Below are positions 6,533-17,273 of a stretch of 64,000 bases of DNA, in pieces (positions within the stretch are counted from its first letter, which is position 1; every line of letters begins with the position of its first letter). Position numbers and translations under genes: made by a program. This DNA is from Lachnospiraceae bacterium (GTDB lineage: Bacteria > Bacillota > Clostridia > Lachnospirales > Lachnospiraceae): contig JAGHER010000088.1 in NCBI GenBank assembly GCA_017889125.1, positions 2,566 to 66,565 of the forward strand, read 5' to 3'. Under the pieces are notes generated by a model. The model saw only the letters and a list, made by a program, of their open reading frames with translations, was not told where the DNA came from and searched no databases.

Positions 6533-8386
6533 ATGGATAAATTTATTGTAAATATTATTCACCGTCCCGAGATGGTGCCGGAATACGCAGAAAAGGTGAC
6601 CGGACACGGGAAAGAGGAGAATATCGGCAGAAAGGCCCTGCTGACCGAATCTCTGGATATTTTTAAGTTTCAGCAGGAAACAGCCCACAAGAACGGCTTA
6701 AAGACCACGATTCAGATGACCTACGCTTCACTCTTTAATGAAGAGGCCATCAGCATTGCCAAAGCGGATCATGAAAAATACGGGGATGAGATTTCTCTGT
6801 CCCTTCTGGGTCTTCCCTGCGAGCAGTTCCGCGAAAAGTACAAGACAAAGGATTTCTGCATCTGGATGTTTTCTATGGAGGATAAGAAATCCATTGTCGA
6901 TGATGTATTCGGCAAGTTTTATGACATATTCGGTTTTTATCCGGAATCCACAGGCTCTTATTATATGGATGCGGAGCTGACCAATTACATTAAGGAGACC
7001 TATCCTTCCGTTAAATGCGCTATTGCTACCTGCTGGGAGGAAGGGCCGAAGGCTTACCACACCTGCAATAATTCCTGGTACACTTTATTTGACGGGGGCC
7101 CCTGGAATCCATGGATTCCTTCAAAGGAAAATACCCATGCTCCTGCAGCTAATGAGGCGGAGGACAGCGGAATTGTGGCAATTCCCCACCTGTCCCGTGA
7201 CCTGCTGGCATGCTATGACGGCAACGGTTCCAATTTCGGCACCCATCCGCAGAATGTACTGCGGGGAATGATTTACGATACCAAGACCTGGGAATTCCCC
7301 TACCTGTACAATCTGATTGACCAGTACCGGTCTCTGGAAAAGTACAACAATGGCTACGCCTACAATATGATGTTTGTGGGCCCAGGCTGGCTGAACAAGA
7401 TGGGACGCTGGGAGGCTCCCTACGAGCTGCTTAAGAAGTCCTACGAGGACGGCATGGCGTATTACGGGAAGCTGAAAAAGGAAGGCAAGCTGGATGATAT
7501 GACCATGGCGGAATTTGCCGATTATTACCGTCAGAAAAAGACCTATACGGAACCGGAGTGTGCGCTGTGGAAGGATGTGCTTTACGGCTCCCAAAAGCAG
7601 GTGTTCTGGTACTGCGATCCCTATATGCGGGCTTGTGTGAATATGGATCAGGGCGGAGCGATTGTGGATCTGCGGCCTTATGCAGCGAAGCTGAAATGGG
7701 AGGTGGGCATCGGCACAAAGCATGTACAGGATGCCTCCTATCCCTTCCTGATTCAGGAAAAATACAGAGCCGGATATTTCACCCATTATGCAGGGGAGGG
7801 TACGGTGCGCAGCGCCAAGATTTCCTACAAGGGTGAAGAGGTAGACCTGTGCCTGTGCCGGACGAAGGCCCATTTCTCTGAGGAGGATATGGGAGATGGA
7901 AAGAAGAGGCGGATTCTGACTCTGGATCCGGTGGATATTGAATTTTATGATCTGACCGTGAAGCTGCAGACGAGAGTAATCTTTTCTGAGGGAAGCTCCG
8001 AGATCCAGATCGAGCGGAGAATCTTAGAGATGAGCGATCCGTCCGCCAAGGTAAGCCTTAACGAATACATGGTGGCCTGCTACGGCACCACAGAGTATCC
8101 GGAGGATATGACCGGCATCACCCTTTCCTGTGAAAAGGCCGGCGAGGAAAAGACCATCTGCTACGAATACAAGTGCAGAGAAGAGGCGCTGGAGGGCGCA
8201 GAGAAGGTAAGCGCAGTTATCCCTGCGATTGAGACAAAGGTATCTATGCGTACAGATAAGGCATCGGCAAAGGGCTATGTCCGGGAAGGCTATGCATTCT
8301 CCCCGATGTTTACGTTAGGATATTCCACAGAAGTTTCTGATAAGGAGGTAGTGTCTACATGGCTCAGTCTGGAAAAGGCAAATTAA
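6533..8386 (+). CDS. Uncharacterised 617-aa cytoplasmic protein embedded in the galactan operon (candidate carbohydrate-active enzyme)
   Basis: Long ORF with normal codon usage between GH53 and GH42, no signal peptide or TM helix. I cannot place it in a family by eye. Confidence 0.8.
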   Translation: MDKFIVNIIHRPEMVPEYAEKVTGHGKEENIGRKALLTESLDIFKFQQETAHKNGLKTTIQMTYASLFNEEAISIAKADHEKYGDEISLSLLGLPCEQFREKYKTKDFCIWMFSMEDKKSIVDDVFGKFYDIFGFYPESTGSYYMDAELTNYIKETYPSVKCAIATCWEEGPKAYHTCNNSWYTLFDGGPWNPWIPSKENTHAPAANEAEDSGIVAIPHLSRDLLACYDGNGSNFGTHPQNVLRGMIYDTKTWEFPYLYNLIDQYRSLEKYNNGYAYNMMFVGPGWLNKMGRWEAPYELLKKSYEDGMAYYGKLKKEGKLDDMTMAEFADYYRQKKTYTEPECALWKDVLYGSQKQVFWYCDPYMRACVNMDQGGAIVDLRPYAAKLKWEVGIGTKHVQDASYPFLIQEKYRAGYFTHYAGEGTVRSAKISYKGEEVDLCLCRTKAHFSEEDMGDGKKRRILTLDPVDIEFYDLTVKLQTRVIFSEGSSEIQIERRILEMSDPSAKVSLNEYMVACYGTTEYPEDMTGITLSCEKAGEEKTICYEYKCREEALEGAEKVSAVIPAIETKVSMRTDKASAKGYVREGYAFSPMFTLGYSTEVSDKEVVSTWLSLEKAN

Positions 8387-8580: not shown

Positions 8581-8605
8581 GGTTTTCGAATTGTGGAGGG
8601 ATGAC

Positions 8606-10714
8606 ATGCTGGGAAAAAGACTGCTTCATGGAGGAGACTATAATCCGGAACAATGGCTGGAATATCCGGAGGTTCTTGAGGAAGATCTGAGACTGATGAA
8701 GGAAGCCGGCGTCAACTGCGTGACCCTGGGGGTATTTTCCTGGGCCATGCTGGAGCCCCGGGAAGGGGAATATGATTTTGACTGGCTGGAGGAGTGCATA
8801 GACCGGCTGGGAAAGGAAGGAATCCAGGTTATCCTGGCAACTCCTTCCGGGGCCATGCCCCATTGGCTTACGCAGAAATATCCGGAGGTCATGCAGGTGC
8901 AGGCAGATGGGAGGAGAAATCTTCCGGGAAAGCGGCACAATTTCTGCTATACCTCTCCGGTGATGCGCCGGAAGATCAGCAGTCTGGACGAACGCCTTTC
9001 TCAGCGGTTTGGCAGCAAGGAGAATGTGATCCTCTGGCATATTTCCAATGAGCTGGGCGGGAACTTTTCTGATGGCGCCTGTCATTGTCCGCTGTGCCAG
9101 GAGGCATTCCGCATCTGGCTGAAGGAAAAGTACGGGACGCTGGAGCGGCTGAATCATGCCTGGTGGGGGCGGTTCTGGAGCCATGTGTATACAGACTGGA
9201 ACCAGATCCACAGCCCCGCGCCAAATGGAGAATGGACCATGACCGGGCTGACCCTTGACTGGAAACGGTTTGTGACCTGGCAGATGAGCAGCTTCTGCCG
9301 GGAGGAAATTGAGGCGGTAAGAAGTGCCTCTTCCCTTCCGGTGACCACGAATCTGATGGGATTTTTTAAGAATCTGGATTACAGCAGGCTGAAAAATCAG
9401 TTTGACCTGATTTCCTGGGACTGTTACCCTTACTGGCACCGGAGCCGGGATGAGGTGCCGGAGGCCGTGTGGGCGGCGGCAGGCCACAGCATGATGCGTT
9501 CCATGAAAAAGGCGCCCTTTCTGCTTATGGAGAGCGTGCCCTCAGCAGTGAATTGGAGAGAGTACAATCCCTTAAAACGGCCAGGGATGCATATGCTGTC
9601 CAGCCTGCAGGCAGTGGCCCATGGTGCAGATTCGGTGCTGTATTTCCAGTGGCGGAAGGGGCGCGGAGCCTATGAGAAATTCCACGGCGCAGTAATCGAT
9701 CATCTGAACGGCAGAGAAACCAGAACATTCCGTGAGGTGGCAGAGGTGGGAGCGGCGCTTCCCCGGCTGGAGCCGTATCTGGAGGGGACGGTGAACCGCC
9801 CGAAGGCAGCTATTGTGTTTGACTGGGAGAACTGGTGGGCGCTGGAGGATACCACAGGCCCCAGGCTTGATCTGGATTATCCGGCCTGCATCGTGGATCA
9901 CTTTCGTGCTTTCTGGGAGGCGGGGATTGAGGCCGATATTATCGGGATGGAGGATTCTCTTGCCGGGTATCAGCTGGTGTCGGCTCCGCTGAATTACATG
10001 TACAGAGGCGATTATGGAGACCGGGTAAGGCAGTTTGTGGAGGAGGGCGGCATTTATGTGACCACCTGCTTTTCCGGCTGCGTGGATGAGTCGGATCTTT
10101 GCTTTACCGGGCACCATCCCCTGGAGGATGTGCTGGGGCTGGTGCCTGAGGAGATTGACGCGCCGTCAGAGGATTTTGCCAACAGCTTCATTTACGGAGA
10201 AAAGGAATATCCGGCGCAGAGACTGTGCGCGGTGGTTCATCCGAAGCCCGGCGCCAGGGTGCTGGCTGCATACGAAAAGGATTTTTATGCCGGCAGTCCG
10301 GCTGTGCTGGAGAATAAGCGGGGGAAGGGAATGGCGTATTTCCTGGCTGCCATATCGAACCTGGATTTTCTCCGGGCCTTTTACCGGGATGTATTCCGGC
10401 AGGCAGGCCTGACCAATGCCCTTGGCATTGATCTTCCTTACGGCGTGACGGTGACGGAGCGGCTGCTGCAGGAGGAGAATGATAATGCAGGAATGGGCGG
10501 CGATGCGGGAATGGGCGGCAAAGCTGGGATGCGCGGCAAAGCAGGAGAGGGGCAAAGTCTGGTCTTTGTCATGAATTTCCGCCATGATCCGGCAGAACTT
10601 TCGGGAATCGGCCAGTGGAGAGATGTCCTGAGCGGCCAGGTCTTTCAGGATGTTCTGCCGATGGATAAGCTGTCCTGCAGAGTTTTGGAAAGAGTGACTG
10701 CGCAGTACTGCTGA
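8606..10714 (+). CDS. ganA: GH42 beta-galactosidase
   Basis: LLHGGDYNPEQW, GVNCVTLGVFSWAMLEPREGEYDF, WHISNELGG (acid/base), FLLMESVPSAVNW (nucleophile). GGAGGG 8595-8600 favours ATG 8606 over the track TTG 8591. Confidence 0.92.
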   Translation: MLGKRLLHGGDYNPEQWLEYPEVLEEDLRLMKEAGVNCVTLGVFSWAMLEPREGEYDFDWLEECIDRLGKEGIQVILATPSGAMPHWLTQKYPEVMQVQADGRRNLPGKRHNFCYTSPVMRRKISSLDERLSQRFGSKENVILWHISNELGGNFSDGACHCPLCQEAFRIWLKEKYGTLERLNHAWWGRFWSHVYTDWNQIHSPAPNGEWTMTGLTLDWKRFVTWQMSSFCREEIEAVRSASSLPVTTNLMGFFKNLDYSRLKNQFDLISWDCYPYWHRSRDEVPEAVWAAAGHSMMRSMKKAPFLLMESVPSAVNWREYNPLKRPGMHMLSSLQAVAHGADSVLYFQWRKGRGAYEKFHGAVIDHLNGRETRTFREVAEVGAALPRLEPYLEGTVNRPKAAIVFDWENWWALEDTTGPRLDLDYPACIVDHFRAFWEAGIEADIIGMEDSLAGYQLVSAPLNYMYRGDYGDRVRQFVEEGGIYVTTCFSGCVDESDLCFTGHHPLEDVLGLVPEEIDAPSEDFANSFIYGEKEYPAQRLCAVVHPKPGARVLAAYEKDFYAGSPAVLENKRGKGMAYFLAAISNLDFLRAFYRDVFRQAGLTNALGIDLPYGVTVTERLLQEENDNAGMGGDAGMGGKAGMRGKAGEGQSLVFVMNFRHDPAELSGIGQWRDVLSGQVFQDVLPMDKLSCRVLERVTAQYC
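10487..10558 (+). repeat. In-frame 18-bp tandem repeat (3-4 copies) inside the GH42 C-terminal domain
   Basis: gcaggaatgggcggcgat / gcgggaatgggcggcaaa / gctgggatgcgcggcaaa / gcaggagaggggcaaagt encode AGMGGD AGMGGK AGMRGK AGEGQS. Confidence 0.8.
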
Positions 10715-10760
10715 ACGGTTCGCATGAAAGATAGAATCAGATACAATTATTTCAGAAAAA

Positions 10761-10785
10761 AGTCAGCGTAAGCTGGCTTTTTTTG
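10761..10785 (+). terminator. Rho-independent terminator of the galactan operon
   Basis: AGTCAGC gtaa GCTGGCT (7 bp with one G-U) followed by TTTTTTT; preceded by an A-run. Confidence 0.65.
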
Positions 10786-10808
10786 CTATAATGGGGTATG
10801 CGGAAAGT

Positions 10809-10869
10809 ATAGCTGATTATCAGGCAGGCGGAATAGATGACTATCGGGCAGGCAGGAGGAATAGCTGAT
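10809..10869 (+). repeat. 24-28 bp degenerate direct repeat (2 full copies + start of a third) running into the SD and start codon of the small ORF
   Basis: atagctgattatcaggcaggcgga (10809-10832), atagatgactatcgggcaggcaggagga (10833-10860), atagctgatg... (10861-). Confidence 0.75.
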
Positions 10870-11062
10870 GAAGGATAAGAGAAAGGATTGGGATATAAGG
10901 GGAGAGGTGCTTTTTGAAGAGGAACTGGAGCGGCGGATCAGACGTCTGGAGGAGCCAGGATATCGGGGGCTTCCGCCCATGAGAAAGAAGGATTACTGGA
11001 TTATGGGCGGAATGGCGCTTGTCAGTCTGGCGGTTTTAATTGCCGGGGTGTGGCTTGACTGA
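10868..11062 (+). CDS. Small (64 aa) membrane-anchored protein, function unknown
   Basis: AGGAGGA 10854-10860 then ATG 10868. Charged N-terminal half and a C-terminal TM helix (WIMGGMALVSLAVLIAGVWL). Stops 20 nt before the next gene. Confidence 0.5.
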   Translation: MKDKRKDWDIRGEVLFEEELERRIRRLEEPGYRGLPPMRKKDYWIMGGMALVSLAVLIAGVWLD

Positions 11063-11081: not shown

Positions 11082-14027
11082 ATGAAAAAAGGAACATGGT
11101 CACAGGGAACACGGTCACAAGGAACACAGCCGCAGGGGATGCCGCCGCAGGGAACGCCGCTGCAGGGAACACAGCCGCAGGGGATGCCGCCGCAGGGAAC
11201 GCCGCTGCAGGGAACACAGCCGCAGGGATCGCGGCCGCTGGAGCAGGAGACGGCCCTGGGAATCCTGCCGGTGATGCCGGAGGAGCGGCGGTACGGCTTT
11301 TGGGATGCGGCGCTGATCCTGTCGGGGTACTGCATTGCCACCTGGAGCTATACCCAGGGGGCTTATCTGGCCACATTGGTGGGATTTCGGCAGCTTTTGG
11401 CGGGCGCCTTTGCGGGAGCGATTTTTATGCTGCTTATTTATCAGCTTCCGGTGGTGCTTTCGGTCCGGTATGGCATTGACATCTGGATCTGGCTCCGGGC
11501 GGTGTTTGGAAGCAGGGGCGTTAAGGTCATGACCCTGGTCATCATTGCTGTGAATTTTCCCTGGTATGCGGTGTGCGGCGAGATGTTTGCCTCTTCTATG
11601 GAAAATCTGGCGGGGATTGCAGGGGTTCCGGTTCCTATAGAGGCGCACCGGCTGCTGGCCCTTCTCTGCGTGGCTGTTGGCAGTCTGATTGCCTTAAAAG
11701 GGCTTGGGCCCATTACCTGGTCCACCAGACTTCTGGTGCCGGCCCTGCTGGCTGTGGGCGTGATTGTGGCTGCGGTGGCATTTACCCAGGTGCCCTTTTC
11801 GGTGATCTGGGATTATGTTCCGAAAAGGCCGCGGTATGATGATCCGCTGATCGCCTACGTGGTATCGGTGGAGGCTAACTTTGCTTTTGTGATTACGCTG
11901 GTGGGAGGTATGGCGGAGGTGCCAAGGCTGGCGCGCACGGAGCGGGGCGGATACCTGGCTGGCGTGGTGGGGCAGGGAATCTCCGGTTCCTTTTTTGTGG
12001 TGCTGGGGGCAGTGATGGCCATCGCTACGGAATATGCCACGGGCGCCATGTCGGAGGATCCGTCGGTGATGATGGCGGCACTGAAGGTACCTTCTCTGGC
12101 TTATACCTCTCTGCTTTTGGTGGCCTTTGCCAATATCGGTACCCAGGCGGTAGGCTCCTATCTTTATGGGGTGATGCTGAAATCCACCTTTCGCCGGGTG
12201 CGCTACGGCTGCCTGGTGGGGGTGCTGGGGCTTTATGTGGGAGCCCTGTGTCTGTGGGGCGGGATTCTGGAGTATTTCGGCGCCTTTTTGACTTTGGGGG
12301 CCTGTGTTTACGGGCCTTTGGCCGGGCTGCTTTTTGCGGATTTCTTTCTGGTGCGGAAGGGGCGCCTGGCTTTCCGGAGCGCTTACGGTGTGAAGGGGCA
12401 TGAGGCCTACCGCTATACCGGCGGCTTTCAGCTGGCAGGATTTTTGTGCCTGGCGGCAGGCATGTGCGCGTCCTTATTTGTCTATGATCCAGTTGGCGGA
12501 GTGGTGCACCGTCCGCTGCTGTTTATGCTTACGCCTACGGGATTGTCATTTCTTACCGCCGGTCTGCTGTACTGGTTTTTGAGCAGTTTGGCGCCTGTGC
12601 GCAGGTATATGCGGAAGGACTTGGCGGAGAGGCCGGATACGAAGCCCTTTGACCGCTTCCGAAGGCCGCCCAGGCAGAATGCATTTGCCATGCCGTTTCT
12701 GTGGCTGGGCTGCTGGGTAATGATGAAGCGGGCTGGACTGGTGATCCGCAAAAGGGGAATGAAGGGCTTAAAGCCGCCTTTCCTTGTGCTGGGAACCCAC
12801 CATTCCTTTACGGATTTTTATGTGACGCCGCTGGCGCTGTTTCCCCATCGGGCCAATTATGTGTCGGAGCTTGAGGGTTTTGAGGCCTTTGGGGAGTGGT
12901 ATTACCGGCAGGCGGGCTGTCTGGGCACCAGGAAGTTTGTGGATGATTTTGCCCTGATCCAGAATATCCGCTGGGTAATGAAGCGCCGGGGGATTCTGGT
13001 TCTTTATCCAGAGGCCCGGTATGCCAATGTGGGAACCAGCTCTGTCCTGCCGGAGTCGGTGGCAAAGCTGGTGAAGGTGCTGAAGGTGCCGGTAGTGACT
13101 TTAAATATGAAGGGAAATTATCTCCGGTCGCCGATCTGGAATACCAGGCTGCGGCGGGAGGTTCGTCTGGAGGCAGAGCTTAGCCTGGCGGTTTCTGGTG
13201 ATGAAGCAGCGCGCCTGGGTGTGCGGGAGATTGGTGAACGGTTGGAAGCATATTTGACTTACGATGAATACGCCTGGCAGAGGGAGAAGAAAATGGCGGT
13301 GACGGTTCCCTGGCGGGCAGAGGGGCTGCATATGCCTTTGTATCAGTGCAGGTGCTGCAGGACAGCCTTTCAGATGCGCTCTCAGGGGAGCAAGCTTTTC
13401 TGCCGCAGCTGCGGCGCCGTCTGGGCGATGGACGAATATGGGACGCTGAAGTTAGAGCGTAGGGGTCTGGATGGTAAAAATGTGGAAGGAAAAAATGCAG
13501 AAGGTAAAACTGTTGAAAACCAAAATCTGGAAAACAAAAATCTGGAAGGCCAAAATCAGGAGAACGTGAAGCCGAAAGGATCCGGGGAACGGGTATATAT
13601 TCCTGATTGGTATGAATGGGAGCGGGAGAATGTGATTCAGGAAATCCGGGAAGGCCGGTACAGCTTAGACTGTCCTGTGCGGGTGGAGGCTTTGCCCAAT
13701 GCGGTGAATTTTATTGACTGCGGAAAGGGAAGGCTGGTGCACGGACGGGACGGCTTTGCATTGACGTTCACCCATTACCAGGATGGAAAGACGAGGACGA
13801 TTCATTTCCCGTCCATCTCTATGACCTCCATTCACACGGAATATAATTATCGCGGAAAAGGACAGTGCGTGGTGCTGTCTGTGCCGGATGACAGCTATTT
13901 CCTGTTTCCTCTTGAGGAGAATGGGTTTAATGCCACCAGAATCCAGTTTGCCGTGGAGGAGCTGTACGCTCTGGCCAAAAGAGAAAAATCCAAAGGAGTA
14001 TCAGATACTTCCGGATGGGTAAAATAA
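11082..14027 (+). CDS. Fusion protein: repeat-rich N-terminus + NCS1-like (purine/cytosine permease type) 12-TM transporter + PlsC/LPLAT-type acyltransferase with zinc ribbon
   Basis: GGAGG 11072-11076 then ATG 11082 (track start 11040 rejected). Permease blocks ERRYGFWDAALILSGYCIATWSY and SVRYGIDIWIWLRAVFGSRG. Acyltransferase HxxxxD in LGTHHSFTDFYV plus LYPEARY block. CRCC...CRSC ribbon. Confidence 0.8.
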   Translation: MKKGTWSQGTRSQGTQPQGMPPQGTPLQGTQPQGMPPQGTPLQGTQPQGSRPLEQETALGILPVMPEERRYGFWDAALILSGYCIATWSYTQGAYLATLVGFRQLLAGAFAGAIFMLLIYQLPVVLSVRYGIDIWIWLRAVFGSRGVKVMTLVIIAVNFPWYAVCGEMFASSMENLAGIAGVPVPIEAHRLLALLCVAVGSLIALKGLGPITWSTRLLVPALLAVGVIVAAVAFTQVPFSVIWDYVPKRPRYDDPLIAYVVSVEANFAFVITLVGGMAEVPRLARTERGGYLAGVVGQGISGSFFVVLGAVMAIATEYATGAMSEDPSVMMAALKVPSLAYTSLLLVAFANIGTQAVGSYLYGVMLKSTFRRVRYGCLVGVLGLYVGALCLWGGILEYFGAFLTLGACVYGPLAGLLFADFFLVRKGRLAFRSAYGVKGHEAYRYTGGFQLAGFLCLAAGMCASLFVYDPVGGVVHRPLLFMLTPTGLSFLTAGLLYWFLSSLAPVRRYMRKDLAERPDTKPFDRFRRPPRQNAFAMPFLWLGCWVMMKRAGLVIRKRGMKGLKPPFLVLGTHHSFTDFYVTPLALFPHRANYVSELEGFEAFGEWYYRQAGCLGTRKFVDDFALIQNIRWVMKRRGILVLYPEARYANVGTSSVLPESVAKLVKVLKVPVVTLNMKGNYLRSPIWNTRLRREVRLEAELSLAVSGDEAARLGVREIGERLEAYLTYDEYAWQREKKMAVTVPWRAEGLHMPLYQCRCCRTAFQMRSQGSKLFCRSCGAVWAMDEYGTLKLERRGLDGKNVEGKNAEGKTVENQNLENKNLEGQNQENVKPKGSGERVYIPDWYEWERENVIQEIREGRYSLDCPVRVEALPNAVNFIDCGKGRLVHGRDGFALTFTHYQDGKTRTIHFPSISMTSIHTEYNYRGKGQCVVLSVPDDSYFLFPLEENGFNATRIQFAVEELYALAKREKSKGVSDTSGWVK
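11121..11228 (+). repeat. 45-bp in-frame tandem repeat, about 2.4 copies
   Basis: ggaacacagccgcaggggatgccgccgcagggaacgccgctgcag at 11121-11165 and identically at 11166-11210, partial third copy to 11228. Encodes (GTQPQGMPPQGTPLQ)n. Confidence 0.95.
13467..13571 (+). repeat. 15-bp in-frame tandem repeat, about 7 degenerate copies
   Basis: ctggatggtaaaaat gtggaaggaaaaaat gcagaaggtaaaact gttgaaaaccaaaat ctggaaaacaaaaat ctggaaggccaaaat caggagaacgtgaag encode LDGKN VEGKN AEGKT VENQN LENKN LEGQN QENVK. Confidence 0.85.
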
Positions 14028-14116: not shown

Positions 14117-15376
14117 ATGACAACGAAAAGAATACAGAAAGCGGAGCGTGCAGTAATCCGTCTGCCTCATGCACGGTCCTTTGGCGTGATCGGGGATCCG
14201 GGCTGTGATGGCCTTGGCACATATAATATGAAGGTTTATGCCGGCGCCCTGGAGGAGACGGCCGGAGATGACTTTACCCTTATTGCCGGAGATCTGGTTC
14301 CCACGGGAACAGGGCGTTATTACGAGATGATTAATGGAATGACGGAGATTGTGGCGGGGAATCCGGTGTATGTGCTGCGGGGAAATCATGATACCGGCGC
14401 ATACCAGGACTATTACGGACTTCATAATTATGCTTTGCTGCTGGCAGAGGGGCTGGCGCTGATTATCCTGGACAATGCAGGGCGGCGCTTTGAGGCGGAG
14501 GGACTGGCTCTTTTGCCGAAGGTTTTGGCCATGGATGAGGTGAAGCAGGCGGTAATCGCTTTTCATATTCCTGTTCCCAATCATTTTATTCCTAACTCGG
14601 TGTCTAAGGAAGAATACGCGCAGCTGAAAGCAGCCTTTATGCCCTGGAAGGACAAGGTGAAGTGCCTGGTGTGCGGCCATGTGCATTCCCGTTTTGTTGA
14701 TGAGAAGGATGGGATACCCTTAGTCTGCACCGGCGGAGGCGGCGCTTTTATCGAGGATGTGTCTGAGGAAATTCAGGCCTGTGATGTGAATCACCATGTG
14801 GTGCATTTTTATCTGGAAGAGGGACGCGTGATGTGGCGGTTCCAGGATCTGGAGGAGGGCTGCTATGGCCGGGAGAGAAGGGACGGGGTCCTGAAGGAAA
14901 AGCTGGAGGAGACGGTAAAGGCAGAGCTGATGGCCCATTTAAAGTACCTGACCTTTGCGGACCGGGCCAGAAGACGGGGCATGGATAAGATTGGAAATTT
15001 GTTTGAAGCCCTGGCGGCTTCGGAATATTATCATGCCAGAAATTTTTATTCTGTTCTGGCCAAACCGGCGGCGTTTTCCGAGTCGCTGGATGGATTTATC
15101 CGAACGGAAAGTTTTGAACATGAGAAATTTTATCAGATAATGGCGGAGTACGGCAGAGAGCATAAGGCGCCGCTTTCTGCGCAGGCTTATGAGGCGGCGG
15201 CTGCAGCAGAGAAGGTTCACGAGAAGCTCCTTTCCCAGGCGAAGGACATGATGGCCTTTGGGCAGGAGGAAATCCTTGTCTGCCCCATCTGCGGTCATGT
15301 GCTGTATGGCAAAGAAATACCGGACCGCTGCCCGGTGTGCGGCGGTCCGGCAAGACAATTTAAAGCTTTTTCCTGA
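14117..15376 (+). CDS. Calcineurin-like metallophosphoesterase fused to a complete rubrerythrin module
   Basis: AAAGGAG SD before ATG 14117. Phosphoesterase blocks GDPGCDG, IAGDLVPTG, VLRGNHD, CGHVH. C-terminal four-helix pattern E...SEYYH...ESFE...AEKVH (diiron ligands) and CPICGH...CPVCGG rubredoxin-type site. Confidence 0.85.
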   Translation: MTTKRIQKAERAVIRLPHARSFGVIGDPGCDGLGTYNMKVYAGALEETAGDDFTLIAGDLVPTGTGRYYEMINGMTEIVAGNPVYVLRGNHDTGAYQDYYGLHNYALLLAEGLALIILDNAGRRFEAEGLALLPKVLAMDEVKQAVIAFHIPVPNHFIPNSVSKEEYAQLKAAFMPWKDKVKCLVCGHVHSRFVDEKDGIPLVCTGGGGAFIEDVSEEIQACDVNHHVVHFYLEEGRVMWRFQDLEEGCYGRERRDGVLKEKLEETVKAELMAHLKYLTFADRARRRGMDKIGNLFEALAASEYYHARNFYSVLAKPAAFSESLDGFIRTESFEHEKFYQIMAEYGREHKAPLSAQAYEAAAAAEKVHEKLLSQAKDMMAFGQEEILVCPICGHVLYGKEIPDRCPVCGGPARQFKAFS

Positions 15377-15389
15377 GGATCTGCCTTCC

Positions 15390-16277
15390 TTAGCCTAGCT
15401 CGGGAGCCTTGGGTGCAGGTGCGGGAGTTGGATTGGGAGCTTTGGGCGCAGGTGCAGGTGTGGTTCGGATGATTACCCTGGGAACTTCGGCTGGTTCCGG
15501 CTTGGCGGCTGCCGGTTCCTTCTTGGGTGCGGGGGCAGGGGCCGCAGGCGCGGCGTTGACGGCTTTTGGCCCGGCCTGGGGCTGTGGCTCCGGTGCGAGC
15601 TTATCGGCTTTTGGCTCTGGCTTTGGTTCGGCCTTCGGCTGTGGTTCTGGTGCGGGCCTGTCGGCTTTTGGTTCTGGCTTTGGTTCGGCCTGTGGCTGTG
15701 GCTCCGGTGCGGGCTTATCGGCTTTTGGCCCGGCCTTTGGTTCAGCCTTTGGCCCTGCTTTCGGTTCAGCCTTCGGCAGGGCTGCCGGTGCAGACTTGAC
15801 TGCTGCTGATGCGGCTGCCGGAGCTGGTTCATCGGCTTTTGGCTCAGGCTTGGCGGCTGCCGGAGCTGGCTTATCGGCCTTCGGGTCAGGCTTATCAGCA
15901 GCTGGTCCCTCTTTCGGGTCAGGTTTCGCAGCGGCAGGCCCGGCTTTCGGGTCCGGTTTATCTGCTTTCGGGTCTGGTTTATCTGCTTTTGGATCTGGTT
16001 TGTCGGCCTTCGGATCAGGCTTGTGGGCAGCCGGTCCTTCTGCTGGATCTGGTTTATCTGCGGCCAGTCCATCTGCCGGTGCTGGCTTTTCTGCCTCTGT
16101 GCTGGCCGGGGCTGTGGGTTCATCCCCTTCGCCTGACAGCAGAGAAGTGCCGTAGGTTCCGGAAAGGCTTGCTGCCGGTCTTGCCCTGCCTGATGCGATG
16201 GATATGATGCCGAAGATAACTGCGGCCAGAATCAGTCCCCAAATGGTCAGCTTAGCGAAAATTGTTTTTTTACTCAT
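15390..16277 (-). CDS. N-terminally membrane-anchored Pro/Ala/Lys/Glu-repeat protein with no globular domain
   Basis: GGAGGAAG SD then ATG 16277 (MSKKTIFAKLTIWGLILAAVIFGIISIA is a TM anchor). ATGAGTAA overlap with the upstream gene stop. The rest is (KPDPKAD)n and (PEPQPxAEPKPEPKADxxA)n. Track start 16313 lies inside the upstream gene. Confidence 0.7.
   Translation of the reverse strand: MSKKTIFAKLTIWGLILAAVIFGIISIASGRARPAASLSGTYGTSLLSGEGDEPTAPASTEAEKPAPADGLAADKPDPAEGPAAHKPDPKADKPDPKADKPDPKADKPDPKAGPAAAKPDPKEGPAADKPDPKADKPAPAAAKPEPKADEPAPAAASAAVKSAPAALPKAEPKAGPKAEPKAGPKADKPAPEPQPQAEPKPEPKADRPAPEPQPKAEPKPEPKADKLAPEPQPQAGPKAVNAAPAAPAPAPKKEPAAAKPEPAEVPRVIIRTTPAPAPKAPNPTPAPAPKAPELG
15580..15740. 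repeat. 57-bp tandem repeat, about 2.7 copies (coding, minus strand)
   Basis: Units 15580-15636 and 15637-15693 differ at only a few positions; the third unit is diverging. Encodes 19-aa PEPQPxAEPKPEPKADxxA. Confidence 0.9.
15970..16053. repeat. 21-bp tandem repeat, 4 copies (coding, minus strand)
   Basis: ggtccggtttatctgctttcg / ggtctggtttatctgcttttg / gatctggtttgtcggccttcg / gatcaggcttgtgggcagccg encode KPDPKAD heptads. Confidence 0.9.
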
Positions 16278-16917
16278 GAAAATCTTCCTCCTTCCGGGAT
16301 GCGCTGAAGGCAATCCAGGCAGAGATAACCTGGTGCAGAGCGACGGCGCCCGCCGGGATCAGCCATAAGGCTGGATTCAGACGGCGGGAAAAAAGAGCGG
16401 CCAGGAACAGGAGCCCGCAGCCTCCCCAGACCAGCTGGTATGGACGCTGCTCTTTTGGAAGCAGTGGGGCAAAAGATAATCGGTTCCGATGAAGGAAGGC
16501 CCTCATGCCCAGTGCGCCAAGGACTGCGCCCAGAAGGAATGTAGGCAGCCCGCTGGCAAAAAGAAGACCGGGAGCAAGGTAAAACCGGATCAGCCACAGC
16601 AGAAAAAATATGCCGCAGACTGCCGCAGGCCCCCATTTTTGAAAGGATTCGGCGGCAGGAAGGATTTTACTGGAGGAAGGGAGTGCCTTTTCACGATTTT
16701 CTCCGGTAACACTGTCCACCAGCTCGAAAATATCGCCAATCCCGCTGATGGTCGCCTGATAAGCAGCTTCTGGGGAGTGCCCCTTTTCAATGAGTCCCCT
16801 GTACTTCTCCAGTAAATCTGCGCACAGAGCTTCCTTTGCTTCCTCTGTCTTTTCGGCGGCGGGGGAACCGGCAAAGGCGCGGTTAATATAAAGAATGATT
16901 TTTTCTTCCATATTCAT
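16270..16917 (-). CDS. PadR-associated membrane protein (DUF1700-like: soluble N-terminal helix bundle + about four TM helices)
   Basis: ATGA overlap with the padR stop (ATG 16917-16915, TGA 16916-16914). N-terminal EKIILYINRAFAGSP...EALCADLLEKY then hydrophobic helices. Typical second gene of PadR operons. Confidence 0.7.
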   Translation of the reverse strand: MNMEEKIILYINRAFAGSPAAEKTEEAKEALCADLLEKYRGLIEKGHSPEAAYQATISGIGDIFELVDSVTGENREKALPSSSKILPAAESFQKWGPAAVCGIFFLLWLIRFYLAPGLLFASGLPTFLLGAVLGALGMRAFLHRNRLSFAPLLPKEQRPYQLVWGGCGLLFLAALFSRRLNPALWLIPAGAVALHQVISAWIAFSASRKEEDFHE

Positions 16918-17273
16918 GTCTCTGTTTCCTCCTCCTTTTTGTCGATAAAAAATGCGTCCATCAATTGACGGATTTCCTTCCACTCCCGGATGCGCTGCTT
17001 TAAATAGGCGCGGCCTTCCTGGGTGATGGAGTAGTACCTTCGTCTCGGCCCGGAGCTTTCATTTCCCCAATAGGAAGTGACATGGCCCTGCTTTTCCAGC
17101 CTTCGGAAGGTGGTGTAAAGGGTCGCTTCTTTTAACTCGTATTTGAAGCCGGATTTTTCCAGGATGAAATTGTTAATGGCATAGCCGTAGCTGTCCTGCT
17201 CTGACAGGCAGCAGAGAATCATGCCATCGGTATATCCATAGATCATGTCAGATGTGATATTCAATCCGTTCAC
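16914..17273 (-). CDS. PadR-family transcriptional regulator
   Basis: Winged-helix block YGYAINNFILEKSGFKYELKEATLYTTFRRLEKQGHVTSYW; GTG start 17273 preceded by GGAGGTG. Confidence 0.85.
   Translation of the reverse strand: MNGLNITSDMIYGYTDGMILCCLSEQDSYGYAINNFILEKSGFKYELKEATLYTTFRRLEKQGHVTSYWGNESSGPRRRYYSITQEGRAYLKQRIREWKEIRQLMDAFFIDKKEEETET

Follow-up and report, generated by a model that had tools for sequence, protein, structure and literature searches.

Why should a membrane carrier of the NCS1 type be joined, in a single open reading frame (ORF), to an acyltransferase of the PlsC type? The question is raised by a stretch of 64,000 nucleotides (nt) from a Lachnospiraceae bacterium (NCBI GenBank assembly GCA_017889125.1, contig JAGHER010000088.1, positions 2,566 to 66,565 of the forward strand). 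This whole stretch is referred to below as the window, and positions are counted from its first letter. The ORF in question lies at 11082..14027 on the + strand and encodes a protein of 981 amino acids (aa) with a carrier, an acyltransferase domain, a zinc ribbon and a PH-like domain; it is preceded by a small ORF, here called S. An earlier note on this DNA had divided the single ORF into a carrier, an acyltransferase and a ribbon with a beta-rich domain. Pfam searches, alignments and structural models agree on these three parts, and the peptide strings quoted in the note are all present in the translation. The answer that we favour, at a probability of roughly 0.45 and by analogy with the LplT-Aas system, is that the module would couple the uptake of an exogenous lipid acceptor to its acylation.

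The N-terminal half of the protein (residues ~55-515; 11244..12626, + strand) is an NCS1-like (nucleobase:cation symporter-1, TCDB 2.A.39) carrier domain with the LeuT fold and 12 transmembrane (TM) helices. It matches PF02133 (Transp_cyt_pur), whose members are permeases for cytosine, purines, uracil, thiamine and allantoin, over residues 63-468, covering profile positions 1-417 of 440, with 57.8 bits against a cut-off of 23.5. The full-length AF2 model (pLDDT 78.3, pTM 0.69) contains the 12 TM helices, and the best Foldseek matches of the carrier were CodB (TMt 0.85-0.86) and Mhp1 (TMt 0.75-0.79), with E-values of 1e-10 to 1e-12, followed by other LeuT-fold carriers. The description of this half as a 12-TM NCS1-like transporter stands; no MFS family match was found anywhere in the fusion ORF. 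Homologues of the fusion protein, which are already public, bear solely the name “cytosine permease” in the databases. The carrier falls far under the cut-offs of the NCBIfam NCS1 model TIGR00800 (54 bits against 353) and of the cytosine and allantoin permease models (40 against 326 and 16 against 620 bits), so it represents a divergent NCS1 subfamily for which the cytosine permease label is unsupported.

What remains of the known ligand site can be read from a single pairwise HMMER alignment, in which the carrier is colinear with Mhp1 residues 19-426. The ring-stacking tryptophan of Mhp1 is kept (W117 = W161) and is invariant among the aligned fusion proteins. Also kept are I41, A309 and T313 of Mhp1, which correspond to I85, A350 and T354 and represent a retained part of the Na+ site. 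In the same alignment, five Mhp1 residues are changed (Q42 to A86, Q121 to C165, W220 to N266, N318 to S359 and S312 to G353). Nowhere in the protein are invariant blocks longer than on TM1, TM3, TM6 and TM8 (SGYCIATWSYTQG, NFPWYAVC, EANFAFVITLVGGM and FANIGTQAVGSY). Because these are the ligand-site helices of NCS1 carriers, the blocks point to a specific ligand.

The second part is an acyltransferase domain of the PlsC/LPLAT superfamily (residues ~553-740; 12738..13301, + strand), as had been proposed. Its HX4D motif is located at 12798-12815 (H573-HSFT-D578), and the remaining motifs are GCLGTRKF (motif II, with R617), YPEARY (motif III, with R646) and VPVVTLNM (motif IV). All of 38 fusion proteins and of 48 diverse members of the family have H573 and D578. 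Within the fusion clade R617 and R646 do not vary either, and the 48 diverse members show near-invariance of the motif II arginine and of Pro-Glu in motif III. A family profile matched Thermotoga maritima PlsC (5kym) with an E-value of 4e-7 over all four motifs; GcipkRkF, yPEArys and vPVV of the family were aligned with GvflDRk, fPEGTRS and vPVlpv of PlsC. The LPLAT fold was recovered in the AF2 model of residues 516-981 (pLDDT 80.8, pTM 0.81), for which Foldseek gave a probability of 1.00 to LpxM (5knk), PlsC (5kym; TMt 0.54-0.57) and GPAT1 (8e4y), and of 0.96-0.99 to PatA. The window protein itself matched PF01553 (Acyltransferase) over residues 564-676 with 14 bits, below the cut-off of 23, which is passed by its homologues P0123, P0125, P0144 and P0258 (24-42 bits). 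A search of the PDB with the C-terminal half as a single sequence returned low-complexity noise only.

Within the superfamily, the enzyme is most like the acyltransferase domain of Aas. In hhalign comparisons, which used single sequences as templates and therefore give rough scores, the family profile matched residues 27-143 of Escherichia coli Aas with a probability of 94.2% (E = 1.1e-7) and E. coli PlsC with a probability of 13% (E = 2e-3). The motif III arginine is displaced by one position relative to PlsC, as it is in Aas, and the “PE[GA]R” form of this motif is common to Aas and the family described here. The top NCBIfam matches of the relatives were the Aas-type models PRK08043, PRK08633 and PRK06814, with scores far below their cut-offs.

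The third part consists of a zinc ribbon and a beta-rich domain, in line with the earlier note. The ribbon (13347..13412, + strand) has the form CxxC-(14)-CxxC, and its four cysteines (C756, C759, C774 and C777) are invariant in the fusion clade and in the 48 diverse family members; matches to zinc-ribbon profiles were weak. The beta-rich domain (residues ~836-972; 13587..13997, + strand) is predicted to be a beta sandwich on which a long C-terminal helix forms a cap. Its AF2 confidence is mostly high (pLDDT 87-97), and its Foldseek matches to PTB, EVH1 and PH domains (TMt 0.4-0.55) identify a PH-like fold.

The whole C-terminal half has a life of its own outside the fusion. An exhaustive HMMER search with residues 516-981 returned 2028 representative clusters at E < 1e-3, nearly all of them 415-440 aa long and likewise composed of an acyltransferase, a zinc ribbon and a PH-like domain in this order. 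Judged by its sequence, the C-terminal half of the fusion is a complete copy of a member of this large standalone family of ~420-aa proteins. Even the linker between the carrier and the acyltransferase (12627..12737, + strand) corresponds to the N-terminus of the standalone enzymes, with a “PFDR..PP+QN” motif and a hydrophobic or amphipathic helix (residues 537-549) that is visible in the models. The standalone homologues start with the PFDR motif, and in loci where the two genes are split, the stop and start codons lie just ahead of it. In a scan of one genome per species with a profile built from 11 sequences, the standalone gene was found in at least 583 species, among them Clostridia, Acholeplasmataceae and other Tenericutes, Bacilli, Treponema, Sphaerochaeta, Bacteroidales and Anaerolineaceae. 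In none of 80 standalone loci was a carrier found within 5 kb, and these loci shared no broadly conserved neighbour or common operon.

Several individual members of the standalone family deserve mention. A cardiolipin-synthase-like ORF is found near the acyltransferase in eight related loci, a hint from a single lineage. The closest standalone relative of the window enzyme (P0124, 45% identity; L093 4491-7398) starts 13 nt after the gene of a 498-aa FGGY-family kinase of glycerol-kinase size; as a single hint, this may indicate that some members use an acceptor of the glycerol-phosphate type. P0144 (585 aa) has a lysine-rich tail, and its ribbon and PH-like domain are separated by a long coiled insert. 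P0258 and P0264 (~590 aa) carry other N-terminal extensions, of which the ~220 aa of P0258 appear by eye to contain multiple TM segments. Such extensions suggest that the acyltransferase has been joined to membrane modules more than once.

The fusion is not confined to the window. A search of 5.8 billion proteins found more than 115 clusters of full-length homologues with 54-97% identity and a length of ~880 aa; their hosts include Lachnospiraceae, Enterocloster asparagiformis, Lachnospira, Acetivibrio mesophilus, Saccharofermentans, Eubacterium and Pilibacter termitis. The junction is colinear across 38 aligned fusion proteins, which keep the linker residues TPTG, Y497 and the PFDR..PP.QN motif, and fused loci with the same junction were found 59 times, in independent metagenomes and in isolate genomes (including those of A. 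mesophilus, E. asparagiformis and P. termitis). On these grounds the junction can, for all practical purposes, be taken as neither an assembly join nor the product of a frameshift, and the fusion near 12600-12750 is genuine, as the earlier note had taken it to be. The ORF itself is uninterrupted up to its end at 14027. It could start at 11040 (TTG) or 11082 (ATG), of which the ATG is the likely start codon because a GGAGG lies 5-6 nt upstream of it and the conserved ORF S ends at 11062.

The window copy is ~100 aa longer than most of its homologues owing to two lineage-specific, in-frame repeats with a 15-nt period. The first, detected by TRF at 11103..11238 (+ strand), is an N-terminal low-complexity tandem repeat (QGT/PQG) comprising nine copies of a 15-nt unit, or 2.4 exact copies of a 45-nt unit. 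It is missing from most homologues, and its copy number varies in the 97%-identical P0001. The second (GKNxEG/ENxNL; 13468..13565, + strand, also from TRF) is inserted in the loop that connects the ribbon to the PH-like domain, a site especially prone to unrelated insertions in other homologues (e.g., P0004 and P0008). Both repeats have pLDDT values below 50 and are predicted to be disordered.

Fused and split versions of the gene pair were compared in 88 loci, of which 80 came from a metagenome scan and seven were fetched individually, the window being the last. Carrier and acyltransferase are encoded by one ORF in 59 loci and by adjacent genes in 22, where the carrier has 468-495 aa and the acyltransferase encoded after it has 419-477 aa. 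The remaining seven loci have the carrier only; five of them end at contig ends, and two (L160 and L161) are truly without an adjacent acyltransferase. In many of the split pairs the genes share 4 nt (ATGA) or are separated by a spacer of 10-33 nt that contains a Shine-Dalgarno sequence, and the C-terminus of the split carriers is conserved (“...RDRxE[LI]TV”). The same partners are therefore adjacent and translationally coupled in some clades and fused in others. The state follows the clade: fusion is seen in three 70%-identity clusters and in three of the four singleton loci, the split form in two clusters. Since the fused and split states sort by clade, the association of S, carrier and acyltransferase is ancient and maintained, with fusion as a variable state. 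This pattern is classic Rosetta-stone evidence for a shared function.

Readthrough or recoding of the stop codon in those split loci that are in frame was considered and rejected. All three stop codons occur, several spacers hold at least two stops, the acyltransferase genes restart with a Shine-Dalgarno sequence and ATG, and the carriers have the conserved C-termini described above.

The two loci that truly lack an acyltransferase gene (L160 26-1453 and L161 6777-8413) are related metagenomic loci in which the pair of S and carrier is found amid generic ABC transporter genes. The carrier pair can thus stand alone. Because the acyltransferase also stands alone (in more than 2000 representative clusters), the two units must each be independently functional, and a shared substrate is the simplest reason for their repeated joining.

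The third component of the module, S, is a single-pass membrane protein of 64 aa encoded at 10868..11062 on the + strand, with an AGGAGG 9 nt upstream of its ATG. It has an acidic, helical N-terminal part (EELERRI...), a K-x-D-Y motif and then one TM helix. Its homologues (49-95 aa) share this arrangement, with an acidic “ELExRI” helix, K-x-D-Y-I-I and one TM helix. With a hidden Markov model built from eight S sequences, an S-like ORF was found directly upstream of the carrier gene in 85 of the 88 loci; in the three loci where none was seen (L142, L151 and L160), the sequence begins in or at the carrier gene. Equivalents of S are found at this place in Acetivibrio, Pilibacter, Enterocloster and metagenomic loci. 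A Pfam search with S gave no meaningful match. S is probably an accessory subunit of the carrier, and the fusion gene is the second gene of a two-gene operon that begins with S. Upstream of S, a 7-bp hairpin (10761-10778), a T-run to 10784 and an extended -10 box (TGCTATAAT, 10784-10792) were read from the sequence as the end of the preceding unit and a candidate promoter (together 10761..10792, + strand), which likely divide the operon from the upstream GH42 gene. The hairpin was missed by a pattern scan; weak terminator-like Rfam matches overlap 10727-10787.

How, then, might the parts work together? Since the two units are independent elsewhere and have repeatedly been joined, and since the enzyme is Aas-like, delivery of a substrate from the carrier to the acyltransferase is the most economical reading. 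The 12-TM LeuT-fold carrier, probably with S as its accessory subunit, would bind an exogenous or outer-leaflet acyl acceptor with a polar head and would deliver it to the cytoplasmic face of the membrane. The acceptor would most likely be a lysophospholipid or another lipid precursor of this kind, for example a glycerophosphodiester. The acyltransferase, which its N-terminal hydrophobic helix and the PH-like domain would keep at the membrane, would use the HX4D dyad for the transfer of an acyl chain, with acyl-acyl carrier protein (acyl-ACP) as the probable donor, and the substrate would be trapped as a membrane lipid. Such a module could operate in the manner of LplT-Aas with another carrier fold and without an acyl-ACP synthetase domain. 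The analogy with LplT-Aas, already drawn in the earlier note, holds in part: the profile match to Aas rather than to E. coli PlsC, the PE[GA]R form of motif III and the fused or adjacent genes all agree with it, but the carrier is not of the MFS. LplT-Aas is known only in Gram-negative bacteria, single-ORF LplT-Aas fusions exist and are uncharacterised, and other lysolipid transporters may exist in Gram-positive bacteria (2024 LplT-Aas paper). The transporters and acyltransferases of Gram-positive bacteria for glycerophosphocholine and lysophosphatidylcholine had not been identified (2019 work on mitis-group streptococci).

A number of observations weigh against uptake and acylation of a lipid. 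The subfamily of the carrier is one of undefined specificity, as its low TIGR00800 score indicates. The characterised substrates of NCS1 carriers are all small and polar, namely nucleobases, hydantoins, allantoin and vitamins, and we know of no NCS1 or LeuT-fold protein that moves lipids. On the enzyme side, the resemblance to Aas is measured by the rough, single-sequence scores given above. According to Pfam, the AMP-binding (acyl-ACP synthetase) domain is absent from the ORF, and a FadD-like gene is found nearby only in one narrow clade. This is the largest fused clade, in which a PadR-HAAS gene lies upstream and genes for a canonical PlsC and a FadD-like ligase lie downstream; the block speaks for a lipid substrate, but it is confined to loci that are at least 88% identical in the carrier domain and is weak evidence. 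Across the clades of module loci there are no conserved lipid-metabolism neighbours. Some neighbours hint instead at a nucleobase-like substrate. An adenosine deaminase gene is found near the module in 4-6 loci, and one fused locus (L091 1-5550) is located just downstream of a cluster resembling reductive pyrimidine catabolism, with genes for a dihydropyrimidinase-like amidohydrolase, a DHO_dh protein with 4Fe-4S domains, an M20 peptidase and a class III aminotransferase. The neighbourhood clues thus point in different ways. No neighbour is conserved across the clades of the fused or split module, and only lineage-specific synteny was found.

These neighbours belong to the alternative that survives best, although it seems rather unlikely to us. 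The carrier would import a nucleobase-, hydantoin- or vitamin-like solute, and the acyltransferase would O- or N-acylate it in a group translocation, yielding a trapped solute, a novel acylated metabolite or a signalling lipid. Besides the pyrimidine-type genes of L091 (dihydropyrimidinase-like, DHO_dh with Fer4, M20 and aminotransferase) and the adenosine deaminase genes, this is suggested by the NCS1 fold and family membership of the carrier, by the retention of W161 and of polar invariants in TM1, TM6 and TM8, and by the existence of S-carrier pairs without an acyltransferase. However, the other Mhp1 ligand residues (Q42, Q121, W220 and N318) are replaced, the enzyme most resembles Aas, and its standalone relatives are linked to no transporter. 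Apart from glycerol 3-phosphate and dihydroxyacetone phosphate, the characterised acceptors of the PlsC superfamily are lipids. Nor was a nucleobase or vitamin riboswitch found: searches upstream of the operon were negative for any riboswitch in the window (in E-value mode) and in seven related loci, and the FMN riboswitch of L091 lies downstream of the fusion gene and is unrelated to it.

Somewhat more doubtful is the view that nothing is handed over at all. The carrier could be an ordinary solute importer and the acyltransferase a housekeeping or remodelling enzyme, the two being joined for co-localisation, for anchoring (with the carrier as anchor or sensor) or for co-regulation. That the acyltransferase family works alone in hundreds of species and that the neighbourhoods show no common pathway would agree with this. 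Yet the same partners and S have been kept in five 70%-identity clusters and four singleton loci, whether fused or split and translationally coupled, and the linker and junction residues are conserved. The standalone enzymes already possess a membrane-binding helix and a PH-like domain, so no extra anchor is needed.

Transport in the opposite direction is improbable. An acylated lipid would be made on the inner leaflet and the membrane domain would move it outward, as in MprF, which has the same order of an N-terminal membrane domain and a C-terminal cytoplasmic lipid-modifying enzyme. The characterised members of NCS1 import their substrates with Na+ or H+ as the driving ion; the carrier keeps part of the Na+ site of Mhp1 (I85, A350 and T354) and has no homology to the MprF flippase. 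Finally, the occurrence of split versions elsewhere lends next to no credibility to a merging of two genes by an assembly join or sequencing frameshift, given that the same conserved junction is found in 59 independently assembled loci, isolates included, and that in the 70%-identity cluster of the window itself every member covering the junction is fused (8 of 9; the sequence of the ninth, L155, stops ~140 nt past the carrier gene).

Uptake of a lipid acceptor coupled to its acylation is therefore the reading we retain. In terms of transport mechanism it can be cast more broadly and more tentatively: the LeuT-fold carrier of the NCS1 family and its single-pass subunit might form a translocator of lipids or lipid precursors that feeds a tethered Aas-like acyltransferase, or might perform a true group translocation in which a small solute is trapped by acylation. 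We consider this broader proposal possible, if on balance unlikely. If true, the module would be the first “uptake by acylation” machine for lysolipids or glycerophosphodiesters in Gram-positive bacteria and would include the first lipid-handling member of NCS1. A carrier that handled lipids, or solutes trapped by acylation, would widen the functional range of NCS1 and LeuT-fold transporters. Transporter-coupled re-acylation of lysophospholipids has so far been established in one system only, the MFS-based LplT-Aas of Gram-negative bacteria. The module described here offers a concrete and conserved candidate from Clostridia that are abundant in gut and rumen; it combines an Aas-like enzyme with a carrier of another fold and a small protein that is new to notice. 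It also draws attention to a very large, uncharacterised family of ~420-aa proteins that combine an acyltransferase, a zinc ribbon and a PH-like domain. Although present in public databases, the module has gone unrecognised: no paper on it, or on any coupling of an NCS1 carrier to an acyltransferase, was found in literature searches, and the earlier note likewise knew of no NCS1-type carrier in such a role.

In the window, the module lies between genes that do not accompany it elsewhere. Upstream is the GH42 beta-galactosidase gene (8591-10714), and 90 nt after the fusion ORF is a gene (14117-15376, + strand) encoding a fusion of a calcineurin-like metallophosphoesterase with rubrerythrin and rubredoxin-like domains. 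The domain combination of the latter protein is unusual, and there is no obvious terminator between its gene and the fusion ORF. Directly upstream of the beta-galactosidase gene, 6533-8386 (+ strand) encodes a 617-aa protein with no Pfam match, which may be an uncharacterised glycoside-related enzyme. On the other side, 15390-16313 (- strand) encodes a 307-aa protein, also without a Pfam match, that has an N-terminal TM or signal segment and long tandem repeats rich in Pro, Lys, Ala and Asp (PKADKPDP...); the TRF arrays in its gene span 15565-16094. This gene is found downstream of those for a PadR regulator (16914-17273) and a 237-aa membrane protein (16270-16983).

Several known systems can be set beside the module. 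As a LeuT-fold secondary carrier paired with a small single-pass membrane protein, it is reminiscent of SGLT1/2-MAP17, structures of which were among the Foldseek matches of the carrier half; there is no sequence relationship, and the likeness is an analogy only. MprF likewise offers an analogy, drawn from general knowledge, of an N-terminal polytopic membrane domain fused to a C-terminal cytoplasmic enzyme acting on lipids, but its fold and chemistry are unrelated and it exports its product. The carrier shares with Mhp1 (benzyl-hydantoin/Na+) and CodB (cytosine) the 12-TM LeuT fold (TM-scores of 0.75-0.86), a PF02133 match above threshold, colinearity with Mhp1 and, as read from the single pairwise alignment, the TM3 tryptophan (W161) and part of the Na+ site. 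It differs from them in having only 16-19% identity and mostly different ligand-contact residues, in being tied to an acyltransferase and in being preceded by a small TM protein. With PlsC (5kym) and the LPLAT superfamily (LpxM, PatA and GPAT1), the enzyme has in common the HX4D dyad, four colinear motifs, the alpha/beta fold and a hydrophobic helix ahead of the catalytic core, which is N-terminal in the standalone members. Its motif III is PEARY in place of PEGTR, a zinc ribbon and PH-like domain have been added, E. coli PlsC is matched weakly and the window protein alone is under the PF01553 threshold.

LplT-Aas, including the uncharacterised single-ORF fusions PRK08633 and PRK06814, offers the fullest comparison. 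In both systems a carrier is adjacent or fused to a peripheral HX4D acyltransferase at the cytoplasmic face, with the carrier N-terminal in the fusions, and the enzymes are connected by the Aas-domain match (94% in hhalign) and the Aas form of motif III. LplT is an MFS protein, whereas the carrier here is of the NCS1/LeuT-fold type, has no acyl-ACP synthetase (AMP-binding) domain beside it, and is accompanied by a zinc ribbon, a PH-like domain and a conserved small membrane protein. The hosts here are Gram-positive anaerobes, in contrast to the Gram-negative hosts from which LplT-Aas is known in the literature.

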